Assembly (NCBI GenBank): GCA_014905635.1
Contig: JABVCE010000018.1
Span: 620,001 to 684,000, forward strand
Origin: Scenedesmus sp. PABB004
Lineage: Eukaryota
Reading direction: 5' to 3'
DNA: 64,000 bases
The notes under the pieces were generated by a model. That model had not been told where the DNA came from. It saw only the letters and a list, made by a program, of their open reading frames with translations, and searched no databases. A program made the translations under genes and the position numbers. This document shows, in pieces, positions 6,805 through 51,357 of this stretch (position 1 is its first letter; every line of letters begins with the position of its first letter).

Positions 6805-7202
6805 GGACGCGCGGACGCGCGGCGCGCGGGGGGAGCGGGAGCGGAGAGCAGCAGCTGCAGCGTGCGCCGGCGGGGAGGGCGAGGGCGGGAGCGGGAGCGG
6901 GGCAGGGAGGGAGGGAGGGAGGGCTGGCGGTGGCGAAGAACGCGCGTGTGGGGCATGCCCCGACAGACGGGGCGGCTGCAGCGAGCTGCAGTGAGCTGTA
7001 GCGAGCTGCTTGATCACGCTGGGGGATGCAACCCGGCGCAGTGCACCCGACCTGTCACACGCCGGCGCAGCTCGCTCAACTGTCCCAGCGGCCAGCAGCC
7101 AGCCTCAGCCCGCACACTCCTCAACGACCCGTGCCAGCTCTCTCTCAGTTCTCACCCCACCACCTCGCGGCGGCGCCAGCAGCAAGCACACGACAGCTGT
7201 GC

Positions 7203-7510
7203 CTAGGCCGCCTCCTGTCCCGCGCCCCCGCTTCGCCCCCCACCCCCTCGGCCGTCGCCGCCGCCGCCGCCGCCGCCTCGTCCAGCGGCCCGGCGCGCCA
7301 ACGCGCCTCGACCTGGGCGCCCACGCATGCCGCGAGCAGCAGGGCCTGCAGCAGCAGTCACAGCCGGCGCTCGGCTGGTTTGATCGGTGAAACGTGTGCT
7401 CGGCTGTTTGACCGCTGAAAGCGGTGCGGTCGCGCCTTGGGCACCGGCGGCGTGCTGAGCACCTCGGCCGCCTCGGCCAGCCCCGCCGCGGCGGCCTGGT
7501 CGGCGCGTGA
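7203..7510 (-). pseudogene. Degenerate relic of an MFS transporter paralogue (two fragments)
   Basis: 7203-7345 resembles the MFS last-exon end (ctaggccgcctcc, matching the EAA-stop at 7918; ggcccggcgcgcca..ctgggcgccc..gccgcgagcagc). 7436-7510 resembles the exon end at 8857-8930 (ggcgtgctgagcacct..gccagccccgccgcggcg). Confidence 0.7.
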
Positions 7511-7917
7511 TGTGGTGAGTTGTTGCACGCGGTGCGCACCAAATTATAATAATGCGTGCGCACGCATGTCAGTGATTTTTCTTCTTCTTCCGCTTGCGTG
7601 CGTTTGATGTTGATTTTCTGGAGCCGCGCTGCCAGCGGGCTCCGAGCGCCCCAAGAACCATGAGCAGCTACACCAGCCAGCCGGCATGTGAAAACCAATG
7701 CCCGCACGCACGCAGCACCCCCGCGACGGGCAGGGCGTTCTCCAGGTAGTGCGGCATGCCGTGGCAGTCGGGCGTCGCTTGCGGGAGCGTCCCAGCGGCA
7801 AGCAGGCCGCCTCAGCGCGGTCACGCTAAGGCCCGTGCCAGCTCCTCACCTGATCAACTGATCAACTGAGTCATGACCCTACCCCGCGCCAGCACCAGCG
7901 ACTAGCGAGCGACACGT

Positions 7918-8698
7918 CTAGGCCGCCTCCGCTTTCCCCGCCCCCTGATCGCCCCGCCCCGCCTCCTTGTCGGCCACCGCTGCAGCCTCGTCTGCCGCCG
8001 CGTCCGGCCCGGCGCGCCAGCGCGCCGCGATCTGGGCGCCCGCGCCCGCCGCGAGCAGCGCGTTGGCGCCGGCGAGGATCGAAAAAAACGGCCCCGGGCC
8101 TAGCGCGGCGACGGCGGCCGAGGCGGCGAGGATGAGCACGCCGCACCCGAAGTACGAGGTGCTGTACATGCCCGCCGCCGCGGCGGCGGCCTGGCTCTGC
8201 TTGAGGGCTGTCAAGAAGCTGAAGATGGCAGGCTGATAGAACGAGTTGGCCGTGCCGATCAGCACCTGGCCACCGAGCACGGCGGCGAGGTGGAGCCGGC
8301 CCGACGCGGCCCAGCCAAAGAGGAGCAGCCCCGCCGGCATGAGCAGCCCCGCCACGCCCGCTCCGGGCGCGAGCGCCGCGAGCGGCACGCCCGGGCGCGC
8401 TGCCGCGGCCGCGTCGCTGAGCCGGCCGCCGAGCGGGCTCGCGAGCAGGCCGGCGAGGCCGCCGGCAGTGTAGGTGAGGCCGACGTAGGTGGGGGAGAGC
8501 GAGTATGGCGGCGCCGCGAGGACGACGGGCAGCTCGGTCAGGATGGCAAACATGCTTGAGAAGACGAGCAGCGACTGGCCCGCATGCAGCACGACGCGGT
8601 GGTCCGCGAGGATGCGCAGCGGGTGCCACGGCGCCTGCGAGGGGATGCCATGCGCGGGGCGTGGGCGCGGGCGCGGGCGCAGGCGCGGGCGCGGGCGT

Positions 8699-8769
<71 letters not shown>

Positions 8770-10183
8770 TGGGCCCGGCAGGGCGCAGGTGGTGCGGGTG
8801 AGGCGGCGCGGCGCGGCGCGGCGCGACGCGTTGTCGTTTGGCGCGTGCACGCGCACCTTGAACTCCGGTGGCGTGCTGAGCACCTTGGCTGCCTCCGCCA
8901 GCCCCGCCGCGGCGCCGGGGTCGACGCGTGACAGCGCGGCGATGCGGTGATAGTGGTGCGTCTCAGGGAGCACAAAGACCAGCAGCGGTGACACGACGAC
9001 CAGCGCAAGCGCGCCGACGGCGGCCATGGTGGAGCGCCAGCCAAACGCCTGCGCTAGTGCCCCGCCTATGATGGGGCCCACGAGACGGCCTGCCGGCGGC
9101 GGGATGGGAGGGGGGGCGGGGGGGGGGGGGGGATGAGAAAAAGCGGGCCACGCCCCCACGAGCAGCCCCGGCCACCACCCGGGGCCGCGGTGGCGGCGGC
9201 GGCGCGGCGCGCTGCGGCGCGTGGGCCGCCACGCCGTGCCGCACCCACGAGCATTGGGATGACCAAAATGCCGAGCGCCGTGCCGCGCTCCAGGGGCGCG
9301 TAGATGTCGGCCACAATGGCGCTCACGGTTGCGCCGTACGCGGACACTGCGCGGGGGCGCGCGCGTAGGCGGGGGGGGGGGGGGGGGGGCACGGTGGGCT
9401 GGGCGACGGAGGCACCGCGCGCGCGTGCGCCGCCGGCGCCGCGCCCGCCGCACGCCCCGTGCGTGCACCACGTGCGCGGTCACCTGACGCGCCCTGCAGC
9501 GCGCGGAAGGCAATGAGGGCACCGATGGAGGGTGACAGGGCGCAGGCGAGGCTGGTCAAAATGAAGGCGGCGGTGCTGGCAAGGAAGACCGGCTTGCGCC
9601 CGAAGCGGTCCGACGCGGGCCCCCAGACGAGGCCCGCACAGCCGACCTGCAGCGTGGGGGACAGGCGGCGGGCAGGCGTCAGCCGGCGTGCGGCCGCACA
9701 GCGCGGCGCACAGCGCGGCGGCGCGCACAGCGAAGACATAGATCGCAACCGTCGCTGCGACTTTTTCCTGCGTCGTCGCAAACTCTGCCTGCAGGGGGCC
9801 CAGGGCTGGCAAGTAGATTGTGTCCGATACCGGCATGAGCACGCTGGCGATGCAGGCGGTCGCCAGAATCACACCGCGCCGGCGGCGGCTGTGGAGGTTG
9901 TAGATGCTCGTCACGCTCTTTGCGCCGCCCTCGGACGGCGCCGACGCCACGGCGCTGCGGGCGTCGTCGCCCTTGAGCGCGCACCCCCACACCACGTGCA
10001 CTCCGTGCTGCGGCTCGGGGGCGGCCGGCGCCCCTGTCTCCGGCGTGGTGCTGCGGCGGCGCCGCGGCAGGGCGGCACGGCGGGTCAGGAGGGTCGGCAA
10101 GCCCGCACGCGCAGGCTCAGCGGCTGGCGGCGGGCGCAGCCTGGCCGGCGGCGTGCCGCGCTGCAACGGCCGTCACACCCCAT
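7918..10183 (-). CDS. MFS transporter, DHA1-like drug:H+ antiporter family, copy A1 (5' exon uncertain)
   Basis: Spliced exons give SDTIYLPAL, WGPASDRFGRKPV (motif A), LIAFRALQG, IVADIY..ERGTALG, GxxxGPIIGG (motif C), FGWR, LPET, GGRLSD. ATG at 10183 inferred from the homologous position in copy B. Confidence 0.85.
8657..8774. repeat. (GGGCGC)n hexamer array in the last intron of MFS A1
   Basis: About 19 units; the copy in A2 is 48 bp (8 units) longer. Confidence 0.9.
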
Positions 10184-10549
10184 CGTGGCTGACGCAACGC
10201 CGCTCTCCGCAGGCTCCATGAGCGCGACGAGTGGTTGATCTCGAGTGGAAGCAGCGGGGTGCGCTCCGCGAGTCAGGGAGAGCCGCCGCGAGCGGATCGC
10301 CTTGCGCCTCCCGCTGGCTGCAGCCGACGTGCGCGTCCGCCGGCCGCCGCGACAGGATGATGAAAGATACAAGCGCAACCACTGAGTGGCTTGGCTGCGT
10401 CCGGACGCTCGAGTAAGGCCCTAGGCCCGCTTTTGACAAGCACCTGATCGCAAAACTGATGTGACCCCTGATCGGGCTCTGTTTGGCTGTGTAACGGAGC
10501 CGCACGCTGCACTCACGCTCAACAGCAGGCAGCAGCGCTCTGCATCGGC

Positions 10550-10600
10550 CTCATTTTTTCCCTTTAAAGGTACAAATTTTACGTAAAACTTTGACCAGAG
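10550..10600 (+). promoter_or_regulatory. AT-rich putative promoter element upstream of the KASII fragment (also ~13354-13404 and ~19324-19374)
   Basis: Strongly AT-rich island with perfect palindromes CCTTTAAAGG (10561-10570) and TTTTACGTAAAA (10577-10588), just before ATG 10601. Function inferred only. Confidence 0.35.
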
Positions 10601-11389
10601 ATGGCGGCGAGTGTGTCTGCCGAGCTGCGCGCCCGCGCGCTGGCGCACGTCGGCGCTGACTCCCTGCAGGCGTGCAGAGACTAGCAGCTTGGTGCGTTGC
10701 TGCGGCGGGCGGCGGACGCAGCGGCGCGGTCCCGAGACGGCGCGATCCCGAGACGGCGCCCGCAGTGCCCGCGGCTAGCAGCAGCTCGTAGCCGCGCGCG
10801 GGTGGTGACGCGGGCAGCCGCCTGCACGGTGGGCGGCGCGCGCTGCTCGGCGCGCGCAGCGGCCGGCGGCGCCGCCACAGCGCGCGGGGCGCCCGCCCGC
10901 CGACGCCGCCCGCGCGCGCCCGCGCGTTTTGCGGCTGCGCCCGCAGGACAGCAGCAGCCGGCGAGTCATGGTCACAGGCATGGCCGTGGTGTCGTCGCTG
11001 GGGCACGAGGTGCGGCCGGCAGCGGGCGGGGCCCGCGGGGCGCCCGGCCGCCGCCGCCGCAGCGCGCCCCTCCGCCGCCGCAGCGCCCGCGTGCTCCGTC
11101 CTTTCACGCCGCGCCGCGCCCAGGTCGAGCCCTTTTACGACGCGCTGCTGGCTGGCAAGAGCGGCGTGAGCCCGATCGAGAGCTTCGACGCGACCGACTT
11201 CCCGACGCGCTTTGCAGGCGAGATCAAGGCGCGGCCCGCTCCCGCGCGCGACTCCGCGCGCTCCGCAGCCTGCCCGCCGCGCACGCGCCGCGCGCCGCGC
11301 CGCCCCGTCCTACCGTGTCTGCCCACGCCGCCGCCGCGCGCCGCCGCGCTGCACCGTGCCCCACAGCGGCGCAGTCGTTTGATGTGGAG
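10601..11389 (+). pseudogene. 5' fragment of plastid 3-ketoacyl-ACP synthase (KASII/FabF-like), introns retained, copy 1
   Basis: Exons encode RRVMVTGMAVVSSLGHE / VEPFYDALLAGKSGVSPIESFDATDFPTRFAGEIK / SFDVE, then homology stops. Leader is disrupted (16-bp duplication 10730-10759, or TAG 10682). Confidence 0.88.
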
Positions 11390-11985
11390 AGCAGCTCACG
11401 CAGCGCGAGCCCGCCGCAGCGGCCGAGCTGAGCCTGCTGCAGTGGCACCTCACGCTCGCGTACCAGCGCGCGTCAAGCCGCAGCTGGCCGGCCGACCCGC
11501 TGCGGCTGCGCCAGCTGCGCCGCGATGGGGGCGCGTGCGCGGCGGGCGCGGACGCGGGGGCGCTCGAATCGGCGGGCGTGCAGGAGCAGGCCCAGGAGGA
11601 GCGCGGGGCGGCCGCCGGCAGTGAAGCTGGCGACGGGGCAGCCCCGTCAGGCAGCGCGCCGCCCGGCACCTGCAGCGACGACGGCGGCAGCGGCGATGTG
11701 CCCTAGGCCGAGGCGGGCGGCATGCGGCTGCAGCCCGCCGCCGACCACCCGCTGCAGCCGCAGTCCGGCGACTGCGGCCGGCGCAGCCGCACCCCGTGCT
11801 GCCGCACGGCCTGCAGGCCTGCCTCCGACGTCGAGGCGGCCGCGCGCCTGTTTTCGGGCGCGACGAGCACGGCGGCGCCCGGGCAGCACAGCGGCGCGGT
11901 GCTCAACTGGATTTACCTCGACAGCGACGCGGTGCGGGGGCCTCACGACGGCGCGCTCATGCTGCGCTGGTTCCTCGCACACTAC
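11389..11985 (+). pseudogene. Middle fragment of the GYF-domain gene (inverted copy of 50127-50729), copy 1
   Basis: EQLTQREPAAAAELSLLQWHLTLAYQRA...WIYLDSDAVRGPHDGALMLRWFLAHY matches the parent gene. In-frame TAG at 11704 where the parent has TCG. Confidence 0.9.
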
Positions 11986-12050
11986 TTGCGTCGCCGCCGC
12001 AAGGTTCTGAGGCGGCGCTGTTTGTTCCGATTGCGTGTGCGGGTGGCGCC
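11986..12050 (+). pseudogene. Fragment of HemK stop codon and 3' UTR (also 14790-14854, 20760-20824)
   Basis: cgtcgccgc..agg..ctgaggcggcgc..gttccga.tgcg resembles the reverse complement of ~25590-25646. Confidence 0.6.
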
Positions 12051-12303
12051 CGGTCTGGACTGGGCGCAGCGATTGGTGCTTACATGCTGGCTGGCTGTTG
12101 ATGCTGTGCAGGTGGTGGCTGACGCACTGCTGCAGAGCGCGCCCGCACCGTTGCCAGCGTCGCCAGCAGCGGCGTCCGAGCTGCTGGTGCCGAGAGCGCC
12201 GCCAGCGCCGGTATGACCCGCGGGGAGGTGCGCTCAACAGCCGAGCACGGGTTTCGAACCCGTAGCCGGTGGATTCACCGGCTAAACCCCGCAAGCGCAG
12301 GTC

Positions 12304-12590
12304 TCACCAGCCAAACCAGTCGAGCGCCGGCGGCAGCGGCTGCGACCCCGCGCCCGGGCCGGAGCTCTGCGCGGCGCACAGATGGCGCTCCAGCACGCCC
12401 AGCCGGGAGTGGCTGGCGCTGGCGTCCATGGCTGCTGCGCGGGCGCCGGCGAGCGCACGGCAACGTGATTGTCGGGAGAGCGGCCGCGGCGGGCGGGGAA
12501 GGCCGCGACGGATGCGCGGCGGGATGGCGACGAGCGCGGGGTGGCCGGGGCTGCAGCTGGGGCGTGTGCGGCATGCGGCGGCGCAGAACG
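12304..12590 (-). pseudogene. 5' fragment of acyl-CoA oxidase (upstream region plus PTS2 leader), copy 1
   Basis: 12348-12590 matches 49114-49345. ATG 12429 gives [27 protein letters not shown], then an unrelated tail to TGA. Confidence 0.88.
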
Positions 12591-13404
12591 CGCCGAGACA
12601 GTTGAGACAGGTCAGCCGCGGCGCCTGCCGAAATTCGCCGGCGGTGCGCCGCCTGCGCTGCCTGAGCTGGCACGACCTCTCTGAGCTGGCACGAGCTGAC
12701 TGACTGAGCTGAGCCGTGCCCGCAGTGCGCGATGTTAGTTGTTCACCTCTGGCCAGAGGTGCCATGGCCCCCGTTTTGCCGCAGCCGAGCCGCCCGCCCC
12801 GCGCCGTGCGGCCGCCAGGCTGGGTGCACCCCACCCCTGTCTCCGGCGTGGGCGGGCGGCGCGTCGCCGCGGCAGGGCGGCACGCGGGTCAGGAGGGTCG
12901 GCAAGCCCGCACGCGCAGGCTCAGCGGCTGGCGGCGGGCGCAGCCTGGCCGGCGGCGTGCCGCGCTGCAACGGCCGTCACACCCCATCGTGGCTGACGCA
13001 ACGCCGCTCTCCGCAGGCTCCATGAGCGCGACGAGTGGTTGATCTCGAGTGGAAGCAGCGGGGTGCGCTCCGCGAGTCAGGGAGAGCCGCCGCGAGCGGA
13101 TCGCCTTGCGCCTCCCGCTGGCTGCAGCCGACGTGCGCGTCCGCCGGCCGCCGCGACAGGATGATGAAAGATACAAGCGCAACCACTGAGTGGCTTGGCT
13201 GCGTCCGGACGCTCGAGTAAGGCCCTAGGCCCGCTTTTGACAAGCACCTGATCGCAAAACTGATGTGACCCCTGATCGGGCTCTGTTTGGCTGTGTAACG
13301 GAGCCGCACGCTGCACTCACGCTCAACAGCAGGCAGCAGCGCTCTGCATCGGCCTCATTTTTTCCCTTTAAAGGTACAAATTTTACGTAAAACTTTGACC
13401 AGAG

Positions 13405-14193
13405 ATGGCGGCGAGTGTGTCTGCCGAGCTGCGCGCCCGCGCGCTGGCGCACGTCGGCGCTGACTCCCTGCAGGCGTGCAGAGACTAGCAGCTTGGTGCG
13501 TTGCTGCGGCGGGCGGCGGACGCAGCGGCGCGGTCCCGAGACGGCGCGATCCCGAGACGGCGCCCGCAGTGCCCGCGGCTAGCAGCAGCTCGTAGCCGCG
13601 CGCGGGTGGTGACGCGGGCAGCCGCCTGCACGGTGGGCGGCGCGCGCTGCTCGGCGCGCGCAGCGGCCGGCGGCGCCGCCACAGCGCGCGGGGCGCCCGC
13701 CCGCCGACGCCGCCCGCGCGCGCCCGCGCGTTTTGCGGCTGCGCCCGCAGGACAGCAGCAGCCGGCGAGTCATGGTCACAGGCATGGCCGTGGTGTCGTC
13801 GCTGGGGCACGAGGTGCGGCCGGCAGCGGGCGGGGCCCGCGGGGCGCCCGGCCGCCGCCGCCGCAGCGCGCCCCTCCGCCGCCGCAGCGCCCGCGTGCTC
13901 CGTCCTTTCACGCCGCGCCGCGCCCAGGTCGAGCCCTTTTACGACGCGCTGCTGGCTGGCAAGAGCGGCGTGAGCCCGATCGAGAGCTTCGACGCGACCG
14001 ACTTCCCGACGCGCTTTGCAGGCGAGATCAAGGCGCGGCCCGCTCCCGCGCGCGACTCCGCGCGCTCCGCAGCCTGCCCGCCGCGCACGCGCCGCGCGCC
14101 GCGCCGCCCCGTCCTACCGTGTCTGCCCACGCCGCCGCCGCGCGCCGCCGAGCTGCACCGTGCCCCACAGCGGCGCAGTCGTTTGATGTGGAG
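13405..14193 (+). pseudogene. KASII 5' fragment, copy 2
   Basis: Near-identical to 10601-11389. Confidence 0.88.
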
Positions 14194-14789
14194 AGCAGCT
14201 CACGCAGCGCGAGCCCGCCGCAGCGGCCGAGCTGAGCCTGCTGCAGTGGCACCTCACGCTCGCGTACCAGCGCGCGTCAAGCCGCAGCTGGCCGGCCGAC
14301 CCGCTGCGGCTGCGCCAGCTGCGCCGCGATGGGGGCGCGTGCGCGGCGGGCGCGGACGCGGGGGCGCTCGAATCGGCGGGCGTGCAGGAGCAGGCCCAGG
14401 AGGAGCGCGGGGCGGCCGCCGGCAGTGAAGCTGGCGACGGGGCAGCCCCGTCAGGCAGCGCGCCGCCCGGCACCTGCAGCGACGACGGCGGCAGCGGCGA
14501 TGTGCCCTAGGCCGAGGCGGGCGGCATGCGGCTGCAGCCCGCCGCCGACCACCCGCTGCAGCCGCAGTCCGGCGACTGCGGCCGGCGCAGCCGCACCCCG
14601 TGCTGCCGCACGGCCTGCAGGCCTGCCTCCGACGTCGAGGCGGCCGCGCGCCTGTTTTCGGGCGCGACGAGCACGGCGGCGCCCGGGCAGCACAGCGGCG
14701 CGGTGCTCAACTGGATTTACCTCGACAGCGACGCGGTGCGGGGGCCTCACGACGGCGCGCTCATGCTGCGCTGGTTCCTCGCACACTAC
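14193..14789 (+). pseudogene. GYF gene middle fragment, copy 2
   Basis: Matches 11389-11985. Confidence 0.9.
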
Positions 14790-15107
14790 TTGCGTCGCCG
14801 CCGCAAGGTTCTGAGGCGGCGCTGTTTGTTCCGATTGCGTGTGCGGGTGGCGCCCGGTCTGGACTGGGCGCAGCGATTGGTGCTTACATGCTGGCTGGCT
14901 GTTGATGCTGTGCAGGTGGTGGCTGACGCACTGCTGCAGAGCGCGCCCGCACCGTTGCCAGCGTCGCCAGCAGCGGCGTCCGAGCTGCTGGTGCCGAGAG
15001 CGCCGCCAGCGCCGGTATGACCCGCGGGGAGGTGCGCTCAACAGCCGAGCACGGGTTTCGAACCCGTAGCCGGTGGATTCACCGGCTAAACCCCGCAAGC
15101 GCAGGTC

Positions 15108-15394
15108 TCACCAGCCAAACCAGTCGAGCGCCGGCGGCAGCGGCTGCGACCCCGCGCCCGGGCCGGAGCTCTGCGCGGCGCACAGATGGCGCTCCAGCAC
15201 GCCCAGCCGGGAGTGGCTGGCGCTGGCGTCCATGGCTGCTGCGCGGGCGCCGGCGAGCGCACGGCAACGTGATTGTCGGGAGAGCGGCCGCGGCGGGCGG
15301 GGAAGGCCGCGACGGATGCGCGGCGGGATGGCGACGAGCGCGGGGTGGCCGGGGCTGCAGCTGGGGCGTGTGCGGCATGCGGCGGCGCAGAACG
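15108..15394 (-). pseudogene. ACX 5' fragment, copy 2
   Basis: Matches 12304-12590; ATG at 15233. Confidence 0.88.
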
Positions 15395-15794
15395 CGCCGA
15401 GACAGTTGAGACAGGTCAGCCGCGGCGCCTGCCGAAATTCGCCGGCGGTGCGCCGCCTGCGCTGCCTGAGCTGGCACGACCTCTCTGAGCTGGCACGAGC
15501 TGACTGACTGAGCTGAGCCGTGCCCGCAGTGCGCGATGTTAGTTGTTCACCTCTGGCCAGAGGTGCCATGGCCCCCGTTTTGCCGCAGCCGAGCCGCCCG
15601 CCCCGCGCCGTGCGGCCGCCAGGCTGGGTGCACCCCACCATCAAAGTCTCCAACCCTGAGGCGGGCGTCGACGTCGCCGACCTCCGGGCTACAGCTGGGT
15701 CTGGCAGGAGCTGCCTGAGCTGGCACGAGCTCACTGTGCTGAGGAGGCACAGCGTGGGCGACGGCGGCCGCGTTTCAATGCGCGCGCACGCTGG

Positions 15795-16468
15795 TCACCC
15801 CTGACCGCCGCCGCCACCGTCGCCGCCGCCAAGCGACAGCATGCTCGCCAGGCCCTGCACCAGCAGCCTCGCCACCGACAGCGGCGCAGCGCTCGGCGCC
15901 ACCTGCTCCCCGCGCGCCCGCCCGTCCGCCGCCGGCGCCTGCTGGCCCAGGAGCGCGGCGGGCGGGAGCTGCGGCGTGTCGGACACAAAGTCCAGCGCCG
16001 TGCCGCTGCCGCGCTCGCCGTCGGCGTCGCCCCAGTCGCCGCCTCCGCCGTCGAGCAGCTCGCCCGCGGCCGCGCCGCCGCTCAGCAGCAGGCCCTCCAC
16101 CGCCGCGCCCACGCTGCCGAGCGCCTCCTGCACCGACGCGATGCCCCAGCCGCCCACGCCGCCGCCGCCGCCGCGCAGGTGCGCGGCCAGCGCACCAAGG
16201 CCGAGCGCTTCGATGTCTGCCAGCGCGCCCGCCGCGCCGCCGCCGCAGCTGGTGTGTGTGCTGACCGGCAGCGCGCCCGGCGGCGGCGCCGGCGACGACG
16301 CCGCGGCCGAGCTCGCGGCGGCACGCGGCGCGTAGCCGCCGCCGGCGTTGAGCTCGTCCAGCAGCGCCCGGAGCGGCGCAAATGCGGCGGGTGGCGGCGG
16401 ACGCGCGCCGCCGCCGCCGTCCAGGCCCTGCAGCACCCGGCGACGGGCAGGGCGTTTTCCAGGTAGTG
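15795..16468 (-). pseudogene. 3' fragment of the GYF-domain gene (copy of ~49437-50132), frameshifted
   Basis: VLQGLDGGG..FAPLRALLDEL..ALADIEALGL..LDFVSDTPQLPP..LLVQGLASMLSLGG matches the parent. One base shorter at ~16436 than the 21765 copy. Confidence 0.9.
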
Positions 16469-16646
16469 CGGCACGCCGTGGCAGTCGGGCGCCGCTTGCG
16501 GGAGCGTCCCAGCGGCAAGCAGGCCGCCTCAGCGCGGTCACGCTAAGGCCCGTGCCATTTCCTCACCTGATCAACTGATCAACTGAGTCACGACCGCGGG
16601 GTGGACCCTACCCCGCGGCTGCGCCAGCGACTAGCGAGCAACGAAC

Positions 16647-17451
16647 CTAAGCCACCTCCGCTTTCCCCGCCCCCTGATCGCCCCGCCCCGCCTCCTTGTC
16701 GGCCACCGCTGCAGCCTCGTCTGCCGCCGCGTCCGGCCCGGCGCGCCAGCGCGCCGCGATCTGGGCGCCCGCGCCCGCCGCGAGCAGCGCGTTGGCGCCG
16801 GCGAGGATCGAAAAAAACGGCCCGGCGTCCAGCGCGGCAACGGCGGCCGAGGCGGCGAGGATGAGCACGCCGCACCCGAAGTACGAGGTGCTGTACATGC
16901 CCGCCGCCGCGGCGGCGGCCTCGCGCTGCTTGAGGGCTGTCAAGAAGCTGAAGATGGCAGGCTGATAGAACGAGTTGGCCGTGCCGATCAGCACCTGGCC
17001 ACCGAGCACGGCGGCGAGGTGGAGCCGGCCCGACGCGGCCCAGCCAAAGAGGAGCAGCCCCGCCGGCATGAGCAGCCCCGCCACGCCCGCTCCGGGCGCG
17101 AGCGCCGCGAGCGGCACGCCCGGGCGCGCTGCCGCGGCCGCGTCGCTGAGCCGGCCGCCGAGCGGGCTCGCGAGCAGGCCGGCGAGGCCGCCGGCAGTGT
17201 AGGTGAGGCCGACGTAGGTGGGGGAGAGCGAGTATGGCGGCGCCGCGAGGACGACGGGCAGCTCGGTCAGGATGGCAAACATGCTTGAGAAGACGAGCAG
17301 CGACTGGCCCGCATGCAGCACGACGCGGTGGTCCGCGAGGATGCGCAGCGGGTGCCACGGCGCCTGCGAGGGGATGCCATGCGCGGGGCGTGGGCGCGGG
17401 CGCGGGCGCGGGCGCAGGCGCGGGCGCGGGCGTGGGCGCGGGCGCGGGCGT

Positions 17452-17546
<95 letters not shown>

Positions 17547-18957
17547 TGGGCCCGGCAGGGCGCAGGTGGTGCGGGTGAGGCGGCGCGGCGCGGCGCGGCG
17601 CGACGCGTTGTCGTTTGGCGCGTGCACGCGCACCTTGAACTCCGGTGGCGTGCTGAGCACCTTGGCTGCCTCCGCCAGCCCCGCCGCGGCGCCGGGGTCG
17701 ACGCGTGACAGCGCGGCGATGCGGTGATAGTGGTGCGTCTCAGGGAGCACAAAGACCAGCAGCGGTGACACGACGACCAGCGCAAGCGCGCCGACGGCGG
17801 CCATGGTGGAGCGCCAGCCAAACGCCTGCGCTAGTGCCCCGCCTATGATGGGGCCCACGAGACGGCCTGCCGGCGGCGGGATGGGAGGGGGGGGGGGGGG
17901 GGGGGGGGGATGAGAAAAAGCGGGCCACGCCCCCACGAGCAGCCCCGGCCACCACCCGGGGCCGCGGTGGCGGCGGCGGCGCGGCGCGCTGCGGCGCGTG
18001 GGCCGCCACGCCGTGCCGCACCCACGAGCATTGGGATGACCAAAATGCCGAGCGCCGTGCCGCGCTCCAGGGGCGCGTAGATGTCGGCCACAATGGCGCT
18101 CACGGTTGCGCCGTACGCGGACACTGCGCGGGGGCGCGCGCGTAGGCGGGGGGGGGGGGGGGGGCACGGTGGGCTGGGCACGGAGGCACCGCGCGCGCGT
18201 GCGCCGCCGGCGCCGCGCCCGCCGCACGCCCCGTGCGTGCACCACGTGCGCGGTCACCTGACGCGCCCTGCAGCGCGCGGAAGGCAATGAGGGCACCGAT
18301 GGAGGGTGACAGGGCGCAGGCGAGGCTGGTCAAAATGAAGGCGGCGGTGCTGGCAAGGAAGACCGGCTTGCGCCCGAAGCGGTCCGACGCGGGCCCCCAG
18401 ACGAGGCCCGCACAGCCGACCTGCAGCGTGGGGGACAGGCGGCGGGCAGGCGTCAGCCGGCGTGCGGCCGCACAGCGCGGCGCACAGCGCGGCGGCGCGC
18501 ACAGCGAAGACATAGATCGCAACCGTCGCTGCGACTTTTTCCTGCGTCGTCGCAAACTCTGCCTGCAGGGGGCCCAGGGCTGGCAAGTAGATTGTGTCCG
18601 ATACCGGCATGAGCACGCTGGCGATGCAGGCGGTCGCCAGAATCACACCGCGCCGGCGGCGGCTGTGGAGGTTGTAGATGCTCGTCACGCTCTTTGCGCC
18701 GCCCTCGGACGGCGCCGACGCCACGGCGCTGCGGGCGTCGTCGCCCTTGAGCGCGCACCCCCACACCACGTGCACTCCGTGCTGCGGCTCGGGGGCGGCC
18801 GGCGCCCCTGTCTCCGGCGTGGTGCTGCGGCGGCGCCGCGGCAGGGCGGCACGGCGGGTCAGGAGGGTCGGCAAGCCCGCACGCGCAGGCTCAGCGGCTG
18901 GCGGCGGGCGCAGCCTGGCCGGCGGCGTGCCGCGCTGCAACGGCCGTCACACCCCAT
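16647..18957 (-). CDS. MFS transporter, DHA1-like, copy A2
   Basis: Near-identical to A1 except last-exon patches (KQREAAA, LDAGPFF, KAEVA*) and the 3' flank. Confidence 0.85.
17386..17551. repeat. (GGGCGC)n hexamer array in the last intron of MFS A2
   Basis: About 27 units. Confidence 0.9.
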
Positions 18958-19374
18958 CGTGGCTGACGCAACGCCGCTCTCCGCAGGCTCCATGAGCGCG
19001 ACGAGTGGTTGATCTCGAGTGGAAGCAGCGGGGTGCGCTCCGCGAGTCAGGGAGAGCCGCCGCGAGCGGATCGCCTTGCGCCTCCCGCTGGCTGCAGCCG
19101 ACGTGCGCGTCCGCCGGCCGCCGCGACAGGATGATGAAAGATACAAGCGCAACCACTGAGTGGCTTGGCTGCGTCCGGACGCTCGAGTAAGGCCCTAGGC
19201 CCGCTTTTGACAAGCACCTGATCGCAAAACTGATGTGACCCCTGATCGGGCTCTGTTTGGCTGTGTAACGGAGCCGCACGCTGCACTCACGCTCAACAGC
19301 AGGCAGCAGCGCTCTGCATCGGCCTCATTTTTTCCCTTTAAAGGTACAAATTTTACGTAAAACTTTGACCAGAG

Positions 19375-20163
19375 ATGGCGGCGAGTGTGTCTGCCGAGCT
19401 GCGCGCCCGCGCGCTGGCGCACGTCGGCGCTGACTCCCTGCAGGCGTGCAGAGACTAGCAGCTTGGTGCGTTGCTGCGGCGGGCGGCGGACGCAGCGGCG
19501 CGGTCCCGAGACGGCGCGATCCCGAGACGGCGCCCGCAGTGCCCGCGGCTAGCAGCAGCTCGTAGCCGCGCGCGGGTGGTGACGCGGGCAGCCGCCTGCA
19601 CGGTGGGCGGCGCGCGCTGCTCGGCGCGCGCAGCGGCCGGCGGCGCCGCCACAGCGCGCGGGGCGCCCGCCCGCCGACGCCGCCCGCGCGCGCCCGCGCG
19701 TTTTGCGGCTGCGCCCGCAGGACAGCAGCAGCCGGCGAGTCATGGTCACAGGCATGGCCGTGGTGTCGTCGCTGGGGCACGAGGTGCGGCCGGCAGCGGG
19801 CGGGGCCCGCGGGGCGCCCGGCCGCCGCCGCCGCAGCGCGCGCCTCCGCCGCCGCAGCGCCCGCGTGCTCCGTCCTTTCACGCCGCGCCGCGCCCAGGTC
19901 GAGCCCTTTTACGACGCGCTGCTGGCTGGCAAGAGCGGCGTGAGCCCGATCGAGAGCTTCGACGCGACCGACTTCCCGACGCGCTTTGCAGGCGAGATCA
20001 AGGCGCGGCCCGCTCCCGCGCGCGACTCCGCGCGCTCCGCAGCCTGCCCGCCGCGCACGCGCCGCGCGCCGCGCCGCCCCGTCCTACCGTGTCTGCCCAC
20101 GCCGCCGCCGCGCGCCGCCGAGCTGCACCGTGCCCCACAGCGGCGCAGTCGTTTGATGTGGAG
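19375..20163 (+). pseudogene. KASII 5' fragment, copy 3
   Basis: Near-identical to 10601-11389. Confidence 0.88.
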
Positions 20164-20759
20164 AGCAGCTCACGCAGCGCGAGCCCGCCGCAGCGGCCGA
20201 GCTGAGCCTGCTGCAGTGGCACCTCACGCTCGCGTACCAGCGCGCGTCAAGCCGCAGCTGGCCGGCCGACCCGCTGCGGCTGCGCCAGCTGCGCCGCGAT
20301 GGGGGCGCGTGCGCGGCGGGCGCGGACGCGGGGGCGCTCGAATCGGCGGGCGTGCAGGAGCAGGCCCAGGAGGAGCGCGGGGCGGCCGCCGGCAGTGAAG
20401 CTGGCGACGGGGCAGCCCCGTCAGGCAGCGCGCCGCCCGGCACCTGCAGCGACGACGGCGGCAGCGGCGATGTGCCCTAGGCCGAGGCGGGCGGCATGCG
20501 GCTGCAGCCCGCCGCCGACCACCCGCTGCAGCCGCAGTCCGGCGACTGCGGCCGGCGCAGCCGCACCCCGTGCTGCCGCACGGCCTGCAGGCCTGCCTCC
20601 GACGTCGAGGCGGCCGCGCGCCTGTTTTCGGGCGCGACGAGCACGGCGGCGCCCGGGCAGCACAGCGGCGCGGTGCTCAACTGGATTTACCTCGACAGCG
20701 ACGCGGTGCGGGGGCCTCACGACGGCGCGCTCATGCTGCGCTGGTTCCTCGCACACTAC
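20163..20759 (+). pseudogene. GYF gene middle fragment, copy 3
   Basis: Matches 11389-11985. Confidence 0.9.
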
Positions 20760-21077
20760 TTGCGTCGCCGCCGCAAGGTTCTGAGGCGGCGCTGTTTGTT
20801 CCGATTGCGTGTGCGGGTGGCGCCCGGTCTGGACTGGGCGCAGCGATTGGTGCTTACATGCTGGCTGGCTGTTGATGCTGTGCAGGTGGTGGCTGACGCA
20901 CTGCTGCAGAGCGCGCCCGCACCGTTGCCAGCGTCGCCAGCAGCGGCGTCCGAGCTGCTGGTGCCGAGAGCGCCGCCAGCGCCGGTATGACCCGCGGGGA
21001 GGTGCGCTCAACAGCCGAGCACGGGTTTCGAACCCGTAGCCGGTGGATTCACCGGCTAAACCCCGCAAGCGCAGGTC

Positions 21078-21364
21078 TCACCAGCCAAACCAGTCGAGCG
21101 CCGGCGGCAGCGGCTGCGACCCCGCGCCCGGGCCGGAGCTCTGCGCGGCGCACAGATGGCGCTCCAGCACGCCCAGCCGGGAGTGGCTGGCGCTGGCGTC
21201 CATGGCTGCTGCGCGGGCGCCGGCGAGCGCACGGCAACGTGATTGTCGGGAGAGCGGCCGCGGCGGGCGGGGAAGGCCGCGACGGATGCGCGGCGGGATG
21301 GCGACGAGCGCGGGGTGGCCGGGGCTGCAGCTGGGGCGTGTGCGGCATGCGGCGGCGCAGAACG
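21078..21364 (-). pseudogene. ACX 5' fragment, copy 3
   Basis: Matches 12304-12590; ATG at 21203. Confidence 0.88.
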
Positions 21365-21764
21365 CGCCGAGACAGTTGAGACAGGTCAGCCGCGGCGCCT
21401 GCCGAAATTCGCCGGCGGTGCGCCGCCTGCGCTGCCTGAGCTGGCACGACCTCTCTGAGCTGGCACGAGCTGACTGACTGAGCTGAGCCGTGCCCGCAGT
21501 GCGCGATGTTAGTTGTTCACCTCTGGCCAGAGGTGCCATGGCCCCCGTTTTGCCGCAGCCGAGCCGCCCGCCCCGCGCCGTGCGGCCGCCAGGCTGGGTG
21601 CACCCCACCATCAAAGTCTCCAACCCTGAGGCGGGCGTCGACGTCGCCGACCTCCGGGCTACAGCTGGGTCTGGCAGGAGCTGCCTGAGCTGGCACGAGC
21701 TCACTGTGCTGAGGAGGCACAGCGTGGGCGACGGCGGCCGCGTTTCAATGCGCGCGCACGCTGG

Positions 21765-22439
21765 TCACCCCTGACCGCCGCCGCCACCGTCGCCGCCGCC
21801 AAGCGACAGCATGCTCGCCAGGCCCTGCACCAGCAGCCTCGCCACCGACAGCGGCGCAGCGCTCGGCGCCACCTGCTCCCCGCGCGCCCGCCCGTCCGCC
21901 GCCGGCGCCTGCTGGCCCAGGAGCGCGGCGGGCGGGAGCTGCGGCGTGTCGGACACAAAGTCCAGCGCCGTGCCGCTGCCGCGCTCGCCGTCGGCGTCGC
22001 CCCAGTCGCCGCCTCCGCCGTCGAGCAGCTCGCCCGCGGCCGCGCCGCCGCTCAGCAGCAGGCCCTCCACCGCCGCGCCCACGCTGCCGAGCGCCTCCAG
22101 CACCGACGCGATGCCCCAGCCGCCCACGCCGCCGCCGCCGCCGCGCAGGTGCGCGGCCAGCGCACCAAGGCCGAGCGCTTCGATGTCTGCCAGCGCGCCC
22201 GCCGCGCCGCCGCCGCAGCTGGTGTGTGTGCTGACCGGCAGCGCGCCCGGCGGCGGCGCCGGCGACGACGCCGCGGCCGAGCTCGCGGCGGCACGCGGCG
22301 CGTAGCCGCCGCCGGCGTTGAGCTCGTCCAGCAGCGCCCGGAGCGGCGCAAATGCGGCGGGTGGCGGCGGACGCGCGCCGCCGCCGCCGTCCAGGCCCTG
22401 CAGCACCCCGGCGACGGGCAGGGCGTTTTCCAGGTAGTG
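21765..22439 (-). pseudogene. 3' fragment of the GYF-domain gene, frame open
   Basis: HYLENALPVAGVLQGLD... open to the stop; parent reads HYLEDGLPVAGVLQGLD. No ATG upstream in frame before a TGA. Confidence 0.88.
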
Positions 22440-22617
22440 CGGCACGCCGTGGCAGTCGGGCGCCGCTTGCGGGAGCGTCCCAGCGGCAAGCAGGCCGCCT
22501 CAGCGCGGTCACGCTAAGGCCCGTGCCATTTCCTCACCTGATCAACTGATCAACTGAGTCACGACCGCGGGGTGGACCCTACCCCGCGGCTGCGCCAGCG
22601 ACTAGCGAGCAACGAAC

Positions 22618-25183
<2,566 letters not shown>

Positions 25184-25622
25184 CGCGCCTGACGCCCCGC
25201 CTCCAGCAGGCTTCGCGCGCGCGGCGAGTGGTTGAACTCGTGATCTGTGGCAGCGGGGCGCGCTCCACGAGTCAGGGCGAGCCGCGCCGGCGGGGCGTCG
25301 GGCCGCTGCTCCGCGCTCTGCCACCAGGCGTCAGGAGGTCGCTGCTGCTGCTGCTGCTGCTGCCTTTGAGCGACACACTCGCGCGAACAGACTGGACGCA
25401 GCGTGCAGGCGCGCACATGAATTGGAGGCCGACATCAAACTCGGCGGGGCGCGGTCTCGGTCCGCACGCGGTCATCCGCGCATACGCCGCGCTGCCGAGC
25501 CGGCGATGACCGTCCCAAGGCCCGTCAGAGCCGCCACACCAGCCGGCCGCCCTGTACGCGCCAGTCACCGCGCGCGCCGCTGCCGCCGCTGCCACGCGCG
25601 CACTCGGAACTGCTGCGCCGCC

Positions 25623-26379
25623 TCAGGCCCTCCTGGTCGCGGCGACGAAGCGCGGCACGCCGTAGCAGTCGGGCACGACCGAGGCGTCGGCAAAGGCGGC
25701 GCCGTGCTGCCGCGCCAGCAGCGCCGCCACGAGGCCCGCCTGCTCGGCGCCGGCCGTCTGCGCCGCGGCGGCGGCGGCGGCGGCGGCGCAGCACGGGTCG
25801 TTGGCGCCGCGCAGTGCGCCGCCTGGCGCGCCGGGGCGCCGGGCGAGGCGCGCCGCGCGCCCCACCTCGAGCGCCAGCAGGCCGCCCGGCGCCAGCATGC
25901 CTGCCGCGCCCTCGCAGATGACCTGCGCGCGGCGGCGCAGCGCGTGGCTCTCCACGCGCCGGGGGCCCGCTGCGGCGATGGCGCCGCTCCGCGCCGCGCG
26001 GCGCACCTGCAGGCTGTCGATGCCCGCATCGAGCCCGCCGTCGAGCGCGGACACGGGCTCGTGCCGCCCCACCTCGGCCTGCAGGCCCGCCATCTGGGCG
26101 CGGGGGATGTAGGGCGGGTTTGACAGCACGCCCCCGAGCCGCCCCGCCAGCCCCAGCGCGGCGAGCGGCTCAAACCAGCTGCCGCGCAGTGCGCGCACGG
26201 CGGCGCCGACGCCGCACGCGTCGGCGTTGGCGGTGGCGTATGCGACTGCCGTGGGGCTGAGGTCGACTGCGTAGACCAGCGGACCCACCCCAGCCTGCAC
26301 CGGCGGCCCGCCCGACTGCTGCTGCTGCTGCCGCTGCTGCTGCCGCTGCTGCTGCTGCCGCTGCTGCTGCTGCTGCTGC

Positions 26380-26419
<40 letters not shown>

Positions 26420-27464
26420 GCTGCAGCAGCAGCCGCGCGGCGCCGACCGCGACGGCGCCGCTGCCGGTGCCGAGGTCGGCCCACGGCAGGCGCGCGAGCC
26501 CGGGGCGCGCGTCCAGCGCCGCCGCGGCGAGCTGCAGCAGCGCCTCGGTCTCCGGCCGCGGCACGAGGATGCCGGGGCCCACCGCCAGCACGAGGTCGAG
26601 CCAGTGCGCGCTGTGGGTGAGATACTGGAAGGGGACGCGCTCCTGCGCGGCGCCGCCGCAGGGCCCCGGCCGGCGGTCGGCGCCGGCCCGGCCCGGCCCG
26701 GCGGCGCGCCGTGCGCCGCGCGCCGCCGGCGCCGGCCGGCGCGCGAGGCGGCACGGCCGCACCTCCAGGCGCAGGCGCCACAGCGCCTCCAGCTGCGACA
26801 CCGGCGCGCGCAGCTGCACCTGCCAGGCGCCCGTCGACGCGCGCCGCCGGCTGGCCGCGCCGAGCTCCAGCTCCAGCGCCTGCCAGCTGCAGGGCGCCCA
26901 CTGCTGCTGCTCCTGCTCGCGCCAGGCCTGCGCGGGCGCGGGGCGCGGCGCGGTGGTGGGCGCGCGCGCCGCCGCCGCCCGGCTGCTGCCGCTCGCGCTC
27001 CCTCACCGCGATCACGTCATCCATCACCCAGGTGACCTCCCGCTGTGAGCGCGCGAGCGGCGGGAGCGTCAGCTGCGCGTGAGCGGCGGCGCGAGAGCGG
27101 CGCGCGAGCGGCGCGCGCCCGCCGGCGTGCTCCCCGCGCTCGCCTGCAGCTCCGCCGCGCCTGGGCCGCCGTCGGCCACCTCCCAGGCGTCCTTGATCTG
27201 GGCGATGCGCGCCAGCACGCGGTCGCGCCAGGCCAGCAGCGCCGAGAGCTGCTCCACGTGCGCCGGCGGGCGGCGGCAGAGCGGCGTGGGCACGTCGGCG
27301 GACGCCGCCACGGGCGCGTCCACCCAGGGCGCGGCGCCCGCCGCCAGGCAGCGCATGAGCAGGTGCGGCGATGCGGCGCGGCGCCTGCGGGCGCCGGCGA
27401 GCGCAGCGACGGCAGCAGCGGCGGCGGCGCGCCCCGGCACCAGCGCGGCGGCCGGCGGCGCCAT
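25623..27464 (-). CDS. prmC: HemK/PrmC release-factor glutamine methyltransferase, probably plastid, 6 exons
   Basis: RVPFQYL, ILVPRPETE, DLGTGSGAVA, AVDLS, GSWFEPL, SNPPYIP, HEPVSALDGG, GGLLALE, DCYGVPRFV. First intron has a GC donor (27143). Confidence 0.93.
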
Positions 27465-40088: not shown

Positions 40089-41340
40089 ATGCCCAAGGTC
40101 ACGCGCAAGGAGGCGGCAGCGCCGCTGCAGGGGGTCGCGGCCATGGCGCTGGACGACGAGGCGCTGCCGGTGAAGCCCAACTTCAGCGCGCTGTCGGCGC
40201 AGGAGCAGCAGGGCGGCAAGGTCGAGTTCCGGCGGGTGCGCAGCAGCGGCCGCCTGGCGGCCGCCGCTGCTGCTGCTGCTGCGCGCCCCGCGCCGTCGTG
40301 GCAGCCGCCCGCGGCGCACCTGCCAGAACCCAGGCAGCGCCCCAGGCTCGGCGCGCCAGCACCCGGGCGCCGAGCCCGGCGGGGCGCCCCGCAGGCACCG
40401 CGCGCCGCGCCGCGCCGAGCCGCCGCCCGCGCGCCGCTCGCCGCCCGCAGGTGCCGGTGCCGCAGAACCGCATGACGCCGCTCAAGACGGCGTGGATGCA
40501 GCTCTACAGCCCCATCACGGAGAACCTGAAGCTCGACATGCGAATGAACCTGAAGACCAAAAAGGCGCGCTGTGCTCCAGGGGACGCTGCCTGCTCGGCT
40601 GGCCGAGCGCCCGCAGCCGCCAGCCGGGCCCGCGCGCGGGGCCGCGCGCCGCGCCGCCGCGGGGCCGCCGCGCGCCGGCTGACGCCGCGGGCGGGCCGCA
40701 GGTCGAGATCAAGACGACGCCGCAGACGGCCAGCCCGGACGTGCTGCAGAAGGCGGCCGACTTTGTGCACGCGTTCATCCTCGGTGCGCGCCTCCGCACA
40801 CCCGCAGCGGGCGGCGGGCGGCAGTGCGCAGGCCCGCGGCGGGCCGCCGCCGCTCACGCGCGGTGGCCGCCGCGCCGCGCGGCGCCGCGCGCAGGCTTTG
40901 AGGTGCGCGACGCGATCGCGCTGCTGCGGCTGGACGACCTGTACGTCGAGTGTTTCGAGGTGAAGGACGTCAAGACGCTGCGCGGCGAGCACCTCTCGCG
41001 CGCGATCGGCCGCCTCGCGGGCAAGGTGCGATGCGCGCGGGCGGCACGCGGGCGCGGCGCGGAACGGGGCGCACTCCGCGGCGCCGCGGCGCGGCCGCCG
41101 CGCACACGCGCCGCCCGCGCGCTGCTGCGCGCCTCCTCCGCAGGGCGGCAAGACCAAGTTTACGATTGAGAACGCGACCAAGACGCGCATCGTGCTCGCC
41201 GACACGCGCATCCACATACTCGGCTCGTTCGCCGCCATCCGCGCCGCGCGCGACGCGCTCTGCGCCCTCATCATGGGCTCGCCGCCGGGCAAGGTCTACA
41301 GCAAGCTGCGCAGCGTCTGCGCGCGCCTCAACGACAGCTA
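40089..41340 (+). CDS. PNO1: RNA-binding 40S biogenesis factor PNO1/Dim2, 5 exons
   Basis: [102 protein letters not shown]. Confidence 0.97.
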
Positions 41341-49195: not shown

Positions 49196-49427
49196 GGCTG
49201 CTGCGCGCCGGCGAGTGCACGGCAACGTGACTGTCGGGAGAGCGGCCGCGGCGGGCGGGGGAGGCCGCGACGGATGCGCGGCGGGCTGGCGACGAGTGCG
49301 GGGGTGCCAGGGGCTGCTGCTGGGGCGTGTGGGGCGTTGCGGCGGAGCGCGTCGCGCCGTGCGCCGCAGGCGTCAGCAACAGACGCAGAGCTGGCACGAG
49401 CACCGAGCCAGCCGTCACGCGCACAGT

Positions 49428-51357
49428 TCACCCCCGCCCGCCGCCGCCGTCGGCGCCGCCGCCGAGCGACAGCATGCTCGCCAGGCCCTGCACCAGCAGC
49501 CCCGCGACCGACGGCGGCGCGGCGCTCGCTGCCGCGCCCGCCTGCTCCCCGCGCGCGCGCCCGGGCCCGTCCGCCGCCGGCGCCTGCTGGCCCAGGAGCG
49601 CGGCTGGCGGGAGCTGCGGCGTGTCGGACACAAAGTCCAGCGCCGTGCCGCTGCCGCGCTCGCCGTCCGCGCCGCCCCAGCCGGCGCCGCCGCCGTCGAG
49701 CAGCTCGCCCGCGGCCGCGCCGCCGCTCAGCAGCAGGCCCTCCACCGCCGCGCCCACGCTGTCGAGCGCCTCCTGCACCGACGCGATGCCCCAGCCGCCC
49801 TCGCCGCCGCCGCCGCCGCGCAGGCGCGCAGCGAGCGCGGCGAGGCCGAGCGCTTCGATGTCTGCCAGCGCGCCCGCCGCGCCGCCGCCGCCGCCGCCGC
49901 AGCTGCTGTGCGTGCTGACCGGCAGCGCGCCCGGCGTCGCCGGCGACGCCGCCGCGGGCGAGCTCGAGCTCGCGGCGGCGGCGCGCGGCGCGTAGCCGCC
50001 GCCGCCGGCGGCGAGCTCGTCCAGCAGCGCCCGGAGCGGCGCAAACGCGGCGGGCGGCGGCGGGCGCGCGGCGCCGCCGCCGTCGAGGCCCTGCAGCACG
50101 CCCGCGACGGGCAGGCCGTCCTCGAGGTAGTGTGCGAGGAACCAGCGCAGCATGAGCGCGCCGTCGTGGGGCCCCCGCACCGCGTCACCATCGAGGTAGA
50201 ACCAGTCGAGCACCGCGCCGCTGTGCTGCCCCGGCGCCGCCGTGCTCGCCGCGCCGGAGAACAGGCGCGCGGCCGCCGCGACGTCGGCGGCGGGCCGGCC
50301 GGCCTGCAGGCCGTGCGGCAGCACGGGGCGCGGCTGCGCCGGCGACTGCGGCTGCAGCGGGTGCTCGGCGGCGGGCTGCAGCCGCATGCCGCCCGCCTCG
50401 GCCGAGGGCTCATCGCCGCTGCCGCCGCCGCCGCCGTCGTCGCTGCAGGCGCCGGGCGGCGCGCTGCCCGACGGGGCTGCCCCGTCGCCAGCTTCACCGC
50501 CGGCGGCCGCGCCGCGCTCCTCCTGGGCCTGCTCCTGCACGCCCGCCGCCTCGGGCGCGTCCACGTCCGCGCCCGCCGCGCACGCGCCCGCGTCGCGGCG
50601 CAGCTGGAACAGCCGCAGCGGGTCGGCCGGCCAGCTGCGGGTCGACGCGCGCTGGTACGCGAGCGTGAGGTGCCACTGCAGCAGGCTCAGCTCGGCGGCT
50701 GCGGCGGGCTCGCGCTGCGTGAGCTGCTCGACCAGGCCCTGCAGCTTCGCGGCCGCGGCGAGGAGCACCGCCGCGGCCGCCTCGTCGGCGGCGCCGCGCG
50801 CGTCGCCCGCATCGTCGTCGCCGCTGGCCGGCTGCTGCTGCTGCTCCTGCGTCTGCCGCTGCTCGCCACCAGGGCTGCCCGGCGGCGGCGGCCTCCGCCG
50901 GCTCGGGCTGCGCTTGGGCGAGTCGGCGGCCGCCGCGACGTCGTCGCCGCCGCTGGCGGCCGCCACCTCCACGCGCAGCGGTCGCTGTGCCTTGTGCTGC
51001 TGCGGGGGGCCCGGCAGCGCCGCCGACGCGGAGCGCAGCGGGCCGCCCTGGCGGCGCTGGTGCGCGAGCAGCAGCGACGCGCGCAGCACGCAGAGCTGCT
51101 CGTGAAGGCCCCGCCGCTCGCTGTCAAAGGCGTCCCGCAGCTGCCAGAGCTGGCGCGCCTTGGCGGCCACCTCGGCCTGCGGGGCGGGTGGCGCAGTAGC
51201 CGTTGCGGGGCTGGGCGCCCCGCCCGCGCCCGGCGCGCGCCCGCAGCTGCCCCGCGCGGAACCAGCTGCTTTGGTGCGCGCGCACCTCCAGCTCCAGCCG
51301 CGCCGCGAGCTCGCGGCGTGCCTGCTCCGGCGAGCAGGCCCCGCTGCCACGCGCCAT
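49428..51357 (-). CDS. GYF-domain protein with N-terminal coiled coil, 2 exons
   Basis: ATG 51357, one GT-AG intron from 51285. WFYLDGDAVRGPHDGALMLRWFLAHYLEDGLPV fits the GYF pattern WxYxD..GP(F)....M..W...GYF...LxV. Confidence 0.75.

Follow-up and report, generated by a model that had tools for sequence, protein, structure and literature searches.

A 1.7-kb inversion with a putative 6-bp breakpoint duplication among captured gene fragments in a transporter array of Scenedesmus sp. PABB004

The window analyzed here is a stretch of 64,000 nt from Scenedesmus sp. PABB004 (G000:C11:620001-684000, in an assembly of 40 Mb and 80 contigs), with a GC content of 77% and with spliceosomal introns. When the window was aligned to itself, a tandem array was seen between about 7064 and 25674, along with two matches to 49114-50729 on the opposite strand. 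The units of the array are intact MFS transporter genes, and the inverted segment described here sits in the mosaic spacer between them (Table 1). No paper on this locus was found in a literature search that lacked most subscription papers and all supplements. The paralogs M1 and M2 differ from the parent MFS gene with dS values of 0.25–0.26 and dN/dS values of 0.34–0.35, and all internal splice sites are kept. The tract in which the parent is identical to M2 would reflect a recent conversion or crossover; comparison of 22400-22800 with 16430-16830 shows this identity at the 3' end of the parent gene, with a dS of 0.25 elsewhere. In the start regions (25010-25183 in the parent, and 18780-18993) neither the parent nor the paralogs have an in-frame ATG unless a further intron is assumed. 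In the parent, an uninterrupted CA repeat of some 490 nt lies in intron 4 (23403-23891); the paralogs have a GC-rich repeat in its place.

Table 1. Features of the array, its spacer and the parent genes (window positions; contig C6 where stated).
Feature	Position	Strand	Remarks
Array left end, decayed	7064..7751		MFS scraps, tRNA-like homologue (7351-7419), HemK tail (7623-7712), 40 nt of GYF end
MFS paralog M1	7918..10183	-	Open over 464 codons
Third inversion copy, incomplete	11980..12833		Ends within KAS exon piece, joined to MFS exon 1
Spacer without assigned source, just upstream of MFS copies	13090..13422		Only three array copies found
KAS gene 5' part, introns included	13423..14196	+	From contig C6 (65711-66866); 76%
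GYF fragment outside inversion	14193..14789	+	Parent 50729->50127; 89.7%; 35/583 substitutions
Chimeric ORF from inversion, 164 codons	14526..15020	+	Partial GYF domain, then reversed HemK tail, then copia
Inverted segment, copy 2	14784..16468		1685 nt; second whole copy 20754-22439
Left breakpoint hexamer CACTAC	14784..14789	+	Encodes His-Tyr in GYF; parent 50127-50132
HemK stop-codon region and downstream tail, reversed	14790..14904		Parent 25537-25647
Ty1/copia integrase-RT linker fragment	14898..15053	-	76–82%; 0/200 shuffles
tRNA-like hairpin stretch	15043..15129	-	ARAGORN tRNA-Arg(GCG)
Acyl-CoA oxidase (ACX) 5' end and upstream region	15152..15399	-	Parent 49114-49359; 90.4%; ATG 15233
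KAS last-exon piece	15593..15672	+	Contig C6 63883-63961; 94%
GYF 3' fragment inside inversion	15783..16468	-	Parent 49418-50132; 88%; 44/665 substitutions
Right breakpoint hexamer	16463..16468	-	The same six GYF bases again, inverted
HemK stub	16469..16490	-	Parent 25653-25674; ends at original tandem-duplication joint (GGC common with 7064-7066)
MFS paralog M2	16647..18957	-	No stop in 464 codons; splice sites retained; start codon uncertain
Parent MFS gene	22618..25183	-	Last ~180 coding nt and 3' flank identical to M2
HemK/PrmC-family parent, intact	25623..27464	-	TIGR03534 E 2.4e-35, below cut-off, introns left in
GYF-domain parent, intact (donor part)	49428..50790	-	PF02213 29.3 bits, above cut-off; open frame; single CACTAC

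The spacer between the MFS gene and the HemK stub spans 3.4 kb and was found to draw on at least four donors, one of them on another contig. The pieces are unspliced genomic copies without transposon ends, in which the KAS introns and the intergenic stretch between GYF and ACX are kept. The parent KAS exon matched PF00109 (E = 4.7e-27), none of 200 shuffles matched as well as the upstream bit of the KAS copy, and the parent ACX exon matched ACX structures (E = 1.7e-6). Donors of the copia fragment are whole elements on contigs C21, C45 and C77, with RVT_2 and rve in the donor ORF. The last-exon piece of KAS sits in filler flanked at 15462 and 15711 by direct repeats of 18 bp, and the other joints of the spacer show overlaps of 1–5 nt or small duplications. 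When parent positions 25285-25537 were taken as a proxy for the empty site, their approximately 250 nt did not align to the copy. In searches of the assembly that skip common words, no donors were found for 13080-13480, most of 15395-15800 and 7510-7623. The sequence-only reading had described the inverted segment as GYF/ACX and HemK material; these pieces are there, but so are part of a copia element, an exon of KAS and filler without an assigned source. AT-rich, palindrome-rich islands for which the assembly yielded no donor occur at 13360-13410 and 7510-7623. The ACX copy forms a 41-codon ORF (15108-15233, minus strand) in which RLGVLERQL has become RLGVLERHL, both of which we take to be PTS2-like targeting motifs.

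The segment from 14784 to 16468 is a true inversion with reciprocal junctions, as had been proposed, and flipping it gives collinear matches to the GYF gene and to the HemK 3' end. Flipped copy 3 aligned to the GYF parent in one piece (50790->49418, 1387 columns, 87.4%) and unflipped copy 3 in two pieces on opposite strands; after GYF, the flipped copy continued with ACX (49359->49114, 90.4%) and then with HemK 25537-25674 (68.5% over 143, E = 5e-13), a match that is missing from the unflipped sequence. The HemK match was likewise better than random sequence, the scores of each piece and of the join being reached by none of 500 dinucleotide shuffles (scores against shuffle means of 40 and 23.5 for the tail, 39 and 21.2 for the right stub, and 70 and 25.3 for the joined pieces), and the HemK 3' end was the best place for each piece in the window outside the array. 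The HemK halves are separated by 9 nt in the rebuilt copy and by 5 nt in the parent, in agreement with the roughly 4 extra nt noted earlier. The breakpoint positions reported before, with CACTAC at 11980, 14784 and 20754 and GTAGTG ending at 7751, 16468 and 22439, stand, yet only two of the inversions are whole, since the copy at 11980 is cut at 12833 and the one at 7751 retains just 40 nt of the GYF end. The left junction contexts were identical over 81 nt in all three copies and the right ones nearly identical; all six junction copies have a single orientation, and because all of them share the inversion it is older than the amplification, as previously suggested.

Both junction types were also spanned by metagenome contigs (two runs of one study, depth 3–4, 16 of 99 pieces listed, with about 2% or more of the letters different). 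Record 1 of X1 spans the left junction (14666-15181) with 11 letters different, and record 8 of X1 and record 16 of X2 span the right junction from 22400; record 14 of X2 was left out of this count, as it has just 3 letters left of 20754. Among the 16 of 99 pieces listed, no strand-switch joint was seen at the breakpoints, and the parent GYF contig, its expected source, was also unseen, so that this listing does not speak against an un-inverted allele. Sequence searches of the assembly returned no whole un-inverted cassette, and the ancestor is therefore a reconstruction in which the parent genes serve as proxies for the ancestral arrangement.

The flip had been expected to rejoin two broken genes. 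The pieces do join, but they are decayed partial copies, both parents being intact elsewhere in the window, and the inversion broke no host gene. The GYF copy lacks the 5' part and is interrupted by an in-frame stop (TAG at 14508, codon 108 of the 432 aligned); its frame is further shifted by indels of 11, 8, 1 and 5 nt that offset one another in pairs, with one more in copy 2. The HemK copy comprises about 140 nt of the 3' end, of which only the last 17 or so codons are coding. Compared with the parent, the captured GYF pieces showed pN/pS values of 0.54 and 0.40, with changes at 40 of 415 third positions and at 39 of 833 first and second positions, near the 0.5 expected of a neutral copy set against a constrained parent. 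The captured scraps are thus likely to be non-functional. Selection on the chimeric ORF was considered and rejected: its GYF score falls from 29.3 to 22.4 bits with core changes (D>N, F>I, G>S), its tail carries a 2-nt insertion in both metagenome runs, and the pN/pS of its GYF part (0.25–0.36) is based on just 4–8 changes.

CACTAC occurs once in the GYF parent (50127-50132) and twice in the derived unit, and it is missing from the HemK parent, which has AAGCG at 25648-25652. The hexamer pair therefore reads as a duplication of GYF bases, and the homology common to both partners proposed in the sequence-only reading fails on the HemK side. Judged from these sequences, the pair is a 6-bp inverted breakpoint duplication copied from the GYF side, with a net gain of 4 nt. 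The overlap with the present-day parents is 1 nt per junction. The terminal inverted match consists of 6 exact nt, or 8 of 9 nt, and then ends. No inverted repeat family was found at both breakpoints; the copia scrap begins about 110 nt inside one end only.

The pieces captured from GYF, ACX and KAS differ from their parents by 5–9% and the HemK tail by about 29%, so that the capture is younger than the MFS/HemK duplication. The right junction of copy 1 (7751) differs from that of copy 2 (16468) at 15 of 205 sites (4 at the ragged end), and copies 2 and 3 differ at none of 217, so that the inversion is old and the last amplification young. Cassette copies 2 and 3 showed 2 substitutions in 3939 nt, and copy pairs overall differed at 1–2 sites per 2.8–3.9 kb. 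The inversion would thus have come fairly soon after the capture, and the last amplification would be recent. At the left end of the array, the tRNA-like homologue (7351-7419) and the HemK tail (7623-7712) both lie in the un-inverted sense and are joined to the 40-nt GYF end, and this HemK tail has derived changes in common with the inverted tail. Together, these two features hint at an un-inverted forerunner.

The explanation favored here, with moderate confidence, is that the segment was freed by two breaks, of which one was staggered, and that fill-in and end joining put it back in inverted orientation within what was already a non-functional patchwork of captured scraps. From the observed junctions, donors, decay and copy identity, we infer the order of events and the repair pathway as follows. 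The MFS gene and the HemK 3' end would first have been tandemly duplicated (7064 to 25674, 3-nt overlap, dS ~0.25), after which KAS from another contig, GYF/ACX from 24 kb away and copia would have been captured by a repair-type process between MFS and the HemK tail. Soon after, a staggered break in the GYF copy and a break in the HemK tail would have been filled in and rejoined in inverted orientation, and unequal crossing-over would then have multiplied the unit, carrying the inversion along beside intact MFS paralogs. One observation speaks against a single flip. Of the two KAS pieces, the last exon lies within the inverted segment and the 5' part beyond it, yet both point the same way; since one capture followed by one flip would oppose them, an extra step is needed.

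The inversion is an ordinary kind of rearrangement, unusually legible, and the kind of event is already known. As in the Drosophila staggered-break inversions described in the available text of PMC1885836, ancestrally unique sequence is found inverted at both breakpoints, only one breakpoint is duplicated, and no shared repeat is required. The duplications given there range from 46 bp to 1.9 kb and belong to chromosome-scale inversions, exceeding the 6 bp and 1.7 kb found here, and, unlike the Drosophila case, the present inversion lies in pseudogene scraps and not in live genes. Filler DNA and repair duplications, as presented in the accessible parts of PMC2671141 and, for maize P1-wr, PMC2686159, resemble the spacer in their intron-bearing and partly nearby pieces without transposon ends, and at P1-wr (PMC2686159), too, such pieces were spread among tandem gene copies through unequal crossing-over and conversion. 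Those cases reach up to 619 bp, or have fillers of 8–131 bp, whereas the present spacer measures 3.4 kb, comes from four or more donors, including one from a different contig, and contains an inversion. In Chlamydomonas reinhardtii, the accessible portions of PMC9977147 and PMC8495919 describe similar end-joining-type breakpoints and chromosomal fragments captured at breaks; the inversion ends reported in PMC9977147 are de novo and carry short deletions, whereas the present one is natural and old and carries a short duplication. On this reading, the locus is a minor but well-resolved natural case of break-repair capture combined with a micro-staggered inversion, both carried along in the transporter array of a compact, GC-rich eukaryotic genome.

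Template switching during replication or repair synthesis (FoSTeS/MMBIR-like or polymerase-theta-like) is a serious, if unlikely, alternative source of the inversion. It would have acted perhaps in the burst that built the mosaic, and a clean un-inverted cassette may then have been short-lived or never fixed. The number of donors within 3.4 kb, the discordant positions of two pieces of one KAS gene, the short overlaps and local direct repeats at the joints and the similar age of capture and inversion are all consistent with such a process, and template switching with chromosomal inserts at breaks is described for Chlamydomonas in the available text of PMC8495919. However, the two halves of GYF, like those of HemK, fit together almost exactly, which would be expected if one existing molecule had been cut and rejoined, and the two left-end scraps in the un-inverted sense (0/300 shuffles; 0/500 for the HemK parent) also argue against it. 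End joining and template switching leave identical junctions, which sequence cannot separate.

A pre-existing inverted CACTAC/GTAGTG pair serving as exchange microhomology was considered improbable. The perfect 6-bp inverted pair at both ends of all copies fits it, and if one transition is assumed in the lost HemK intermediate the overlaps would become 4 and 2 nt; this lost, highly diverged duplicate may once have offered 2–6 nt of homology. With the AAGCG of the HemK parent, however, the hexamer would need a prior chance gain of 4 nt, and at the non-TE inversion breakpoints of C. reinhardtii mutation lines treated in the available text of PMC9977147, homology (micro or macro) was absent.

Site-specific flipping of the segment across the 6-bp core by a Crypton-like tyrosine recombinase appeared highly improbable. 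A 6-bp core is of a size that suits tyrosine recombinases, and Crypton-linked inversions are known in C. reinhardtii from the sections available of PMC9977147. Nevertheless, PF00589 gave no match in the genome (controls 14/14, but prokaryotic and intron-free, so that a divergent or intron-split enzyme could escape), the CAYCG target given in those sections of PMC9977147 is absent from both junctions, and six of six junction copies have a single orientation.

That the segment is a non-autonomous Pack-CACTA transposon with captured gene pieces is hardly credible. CACTAC at both ends and an interior mosaic of host pieces recall such elements, but, as had been recognized from the sequence, the ends are CACTA-like without the segment being a CACTA element: target site duplications of 3 bp are lacking (GCA and CGG in both whole copies), host homology continues through both termini, and the CACTA/G terminal bases are the His-Tyr codons of GYF. 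Subterminal repeats are a feature of CACTA elements; the terminal 300 nt held no inverted 10-mer and no common 12-mer. No dispersed copies with the same termini were seen among the 62 matches listed (40 of 347 candidates scored), and the transposase families PF02992 and PF13960 gave no matches in the genome in a search whose controls were also silent (0/14) and which therefore carries no weight by itself. No extended TIR goes beyond the 8 of 9 nt, against a 26-bp core in Pack-CACTA1a in the available text of PMC6379663, which describes elements alike in their CACTA-like first bases and host-gene mosaics and unlike the present segment in their 26-bp-type TIR, 3-bp TSD and dispersed family. If the favored reading holds, the segment is a warning that a breakpoint duplication can create CACTA-like ends. 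Assembly artefacts, which so repetitive and GC-rich a region could favor, are equally hard to credit, as the three metagenome contigs with differing letters span both junction types and the junction copies have diverged from one another.

The flip leaves the ACX start (15233, 21203) pointing in the direction in which the MFS genes are read, with M2 about 2.2 kb downstream, whereas it runs antisense to the pieces of GYF and KAS; the ATG at 15233 faces the MFS copy on its left. It is conceivable, though improbable, that the flipped ACX promoter gives the MFS paralogs new regulation and sends antisense RNA across the GYF/KAS scraps, that selection on the transporter amplified the unit and that the transcript was mobilized to contig C6 by a repeat. 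The repair scar would then have turned into a promoter-shuffling, trans-silencing and mobile module. The locus would carry greater weight if transcription of the MFS paralogs, or of RNA antisense to the KAS/GYF parents, starts from the flipped promoter, or if the repeat family on C6 turns out to represent a new element that carries cargo.

A 1131-nt piece of the spacer (13470-14600) is copied at C6:896193-897323 with 99.3% identity and 7–8 differences from the three array copies, and it reached this contig later. A dispersed repeat, found at no fewer than nine other loci with one end fixed and the far end variable, is joined to this copy by its fixed end, the two overlapping by 5 nt. In the direction of that end, the piece reads as an antisense RNA driven by ACX would, introns included; a DNA template explains it equally well. 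TSD-like repeats of 7, 14 and 10 bp flank three of six other repeat copies with that fixed end, and none was found within 10 kb around the C6 copy. Replitrons and some Helitrons of Chlamydomonas also give variable TSDs, according to the available text of 10.1101/2022.12.15.520654. The ORFs of the family matched no Pfam family, Rfam gave nothing above threshold, and the array contained no credible piece of it (best matches 39–95 nt, of low complexity). It may be a cargo-carrying mobile family, as yet unclassified. At the fusion (L012:1193-2645, C6:896193-897645) the repeat end is internally deleted; among the family loci L040-L048, a second end variant occurs in L043 and L047 and a foreign 5' part in L048.

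A tRNA gene at 15043-15129 was rejected, its best Rfam score being 17.1 bits against a cut-off of 47 (RF01852); the Rfam scan of 6000-27000 gave only low-complexity matches below threshold, and no donor of the hairpin was found in the assembly. The hairpins at 12239-12325, 15043-15129 and 21013-21099 have a perfect B-box-like loop and a 13–15-nt direct repeat at their bounds, and the homologue at the left end of the array (7351-7419) is a deleted one. Seven of the 11 differences of X1 record 1 (one of them a deletion) fall within 15064-15145. A fourth ARAGORN tRNA-Arg(GCG) at 40355-40418 (minus strand) is probably spurious. Young, near-identical Ty1/copia elements (96–99% alike) of 5.8 kb with 302-bp LTRs occur at L014, L015 and L016, where they have inserted next to a satellite of 172 bp, close to the ends of contigs, and in L016 gag and pol lie in different frames.
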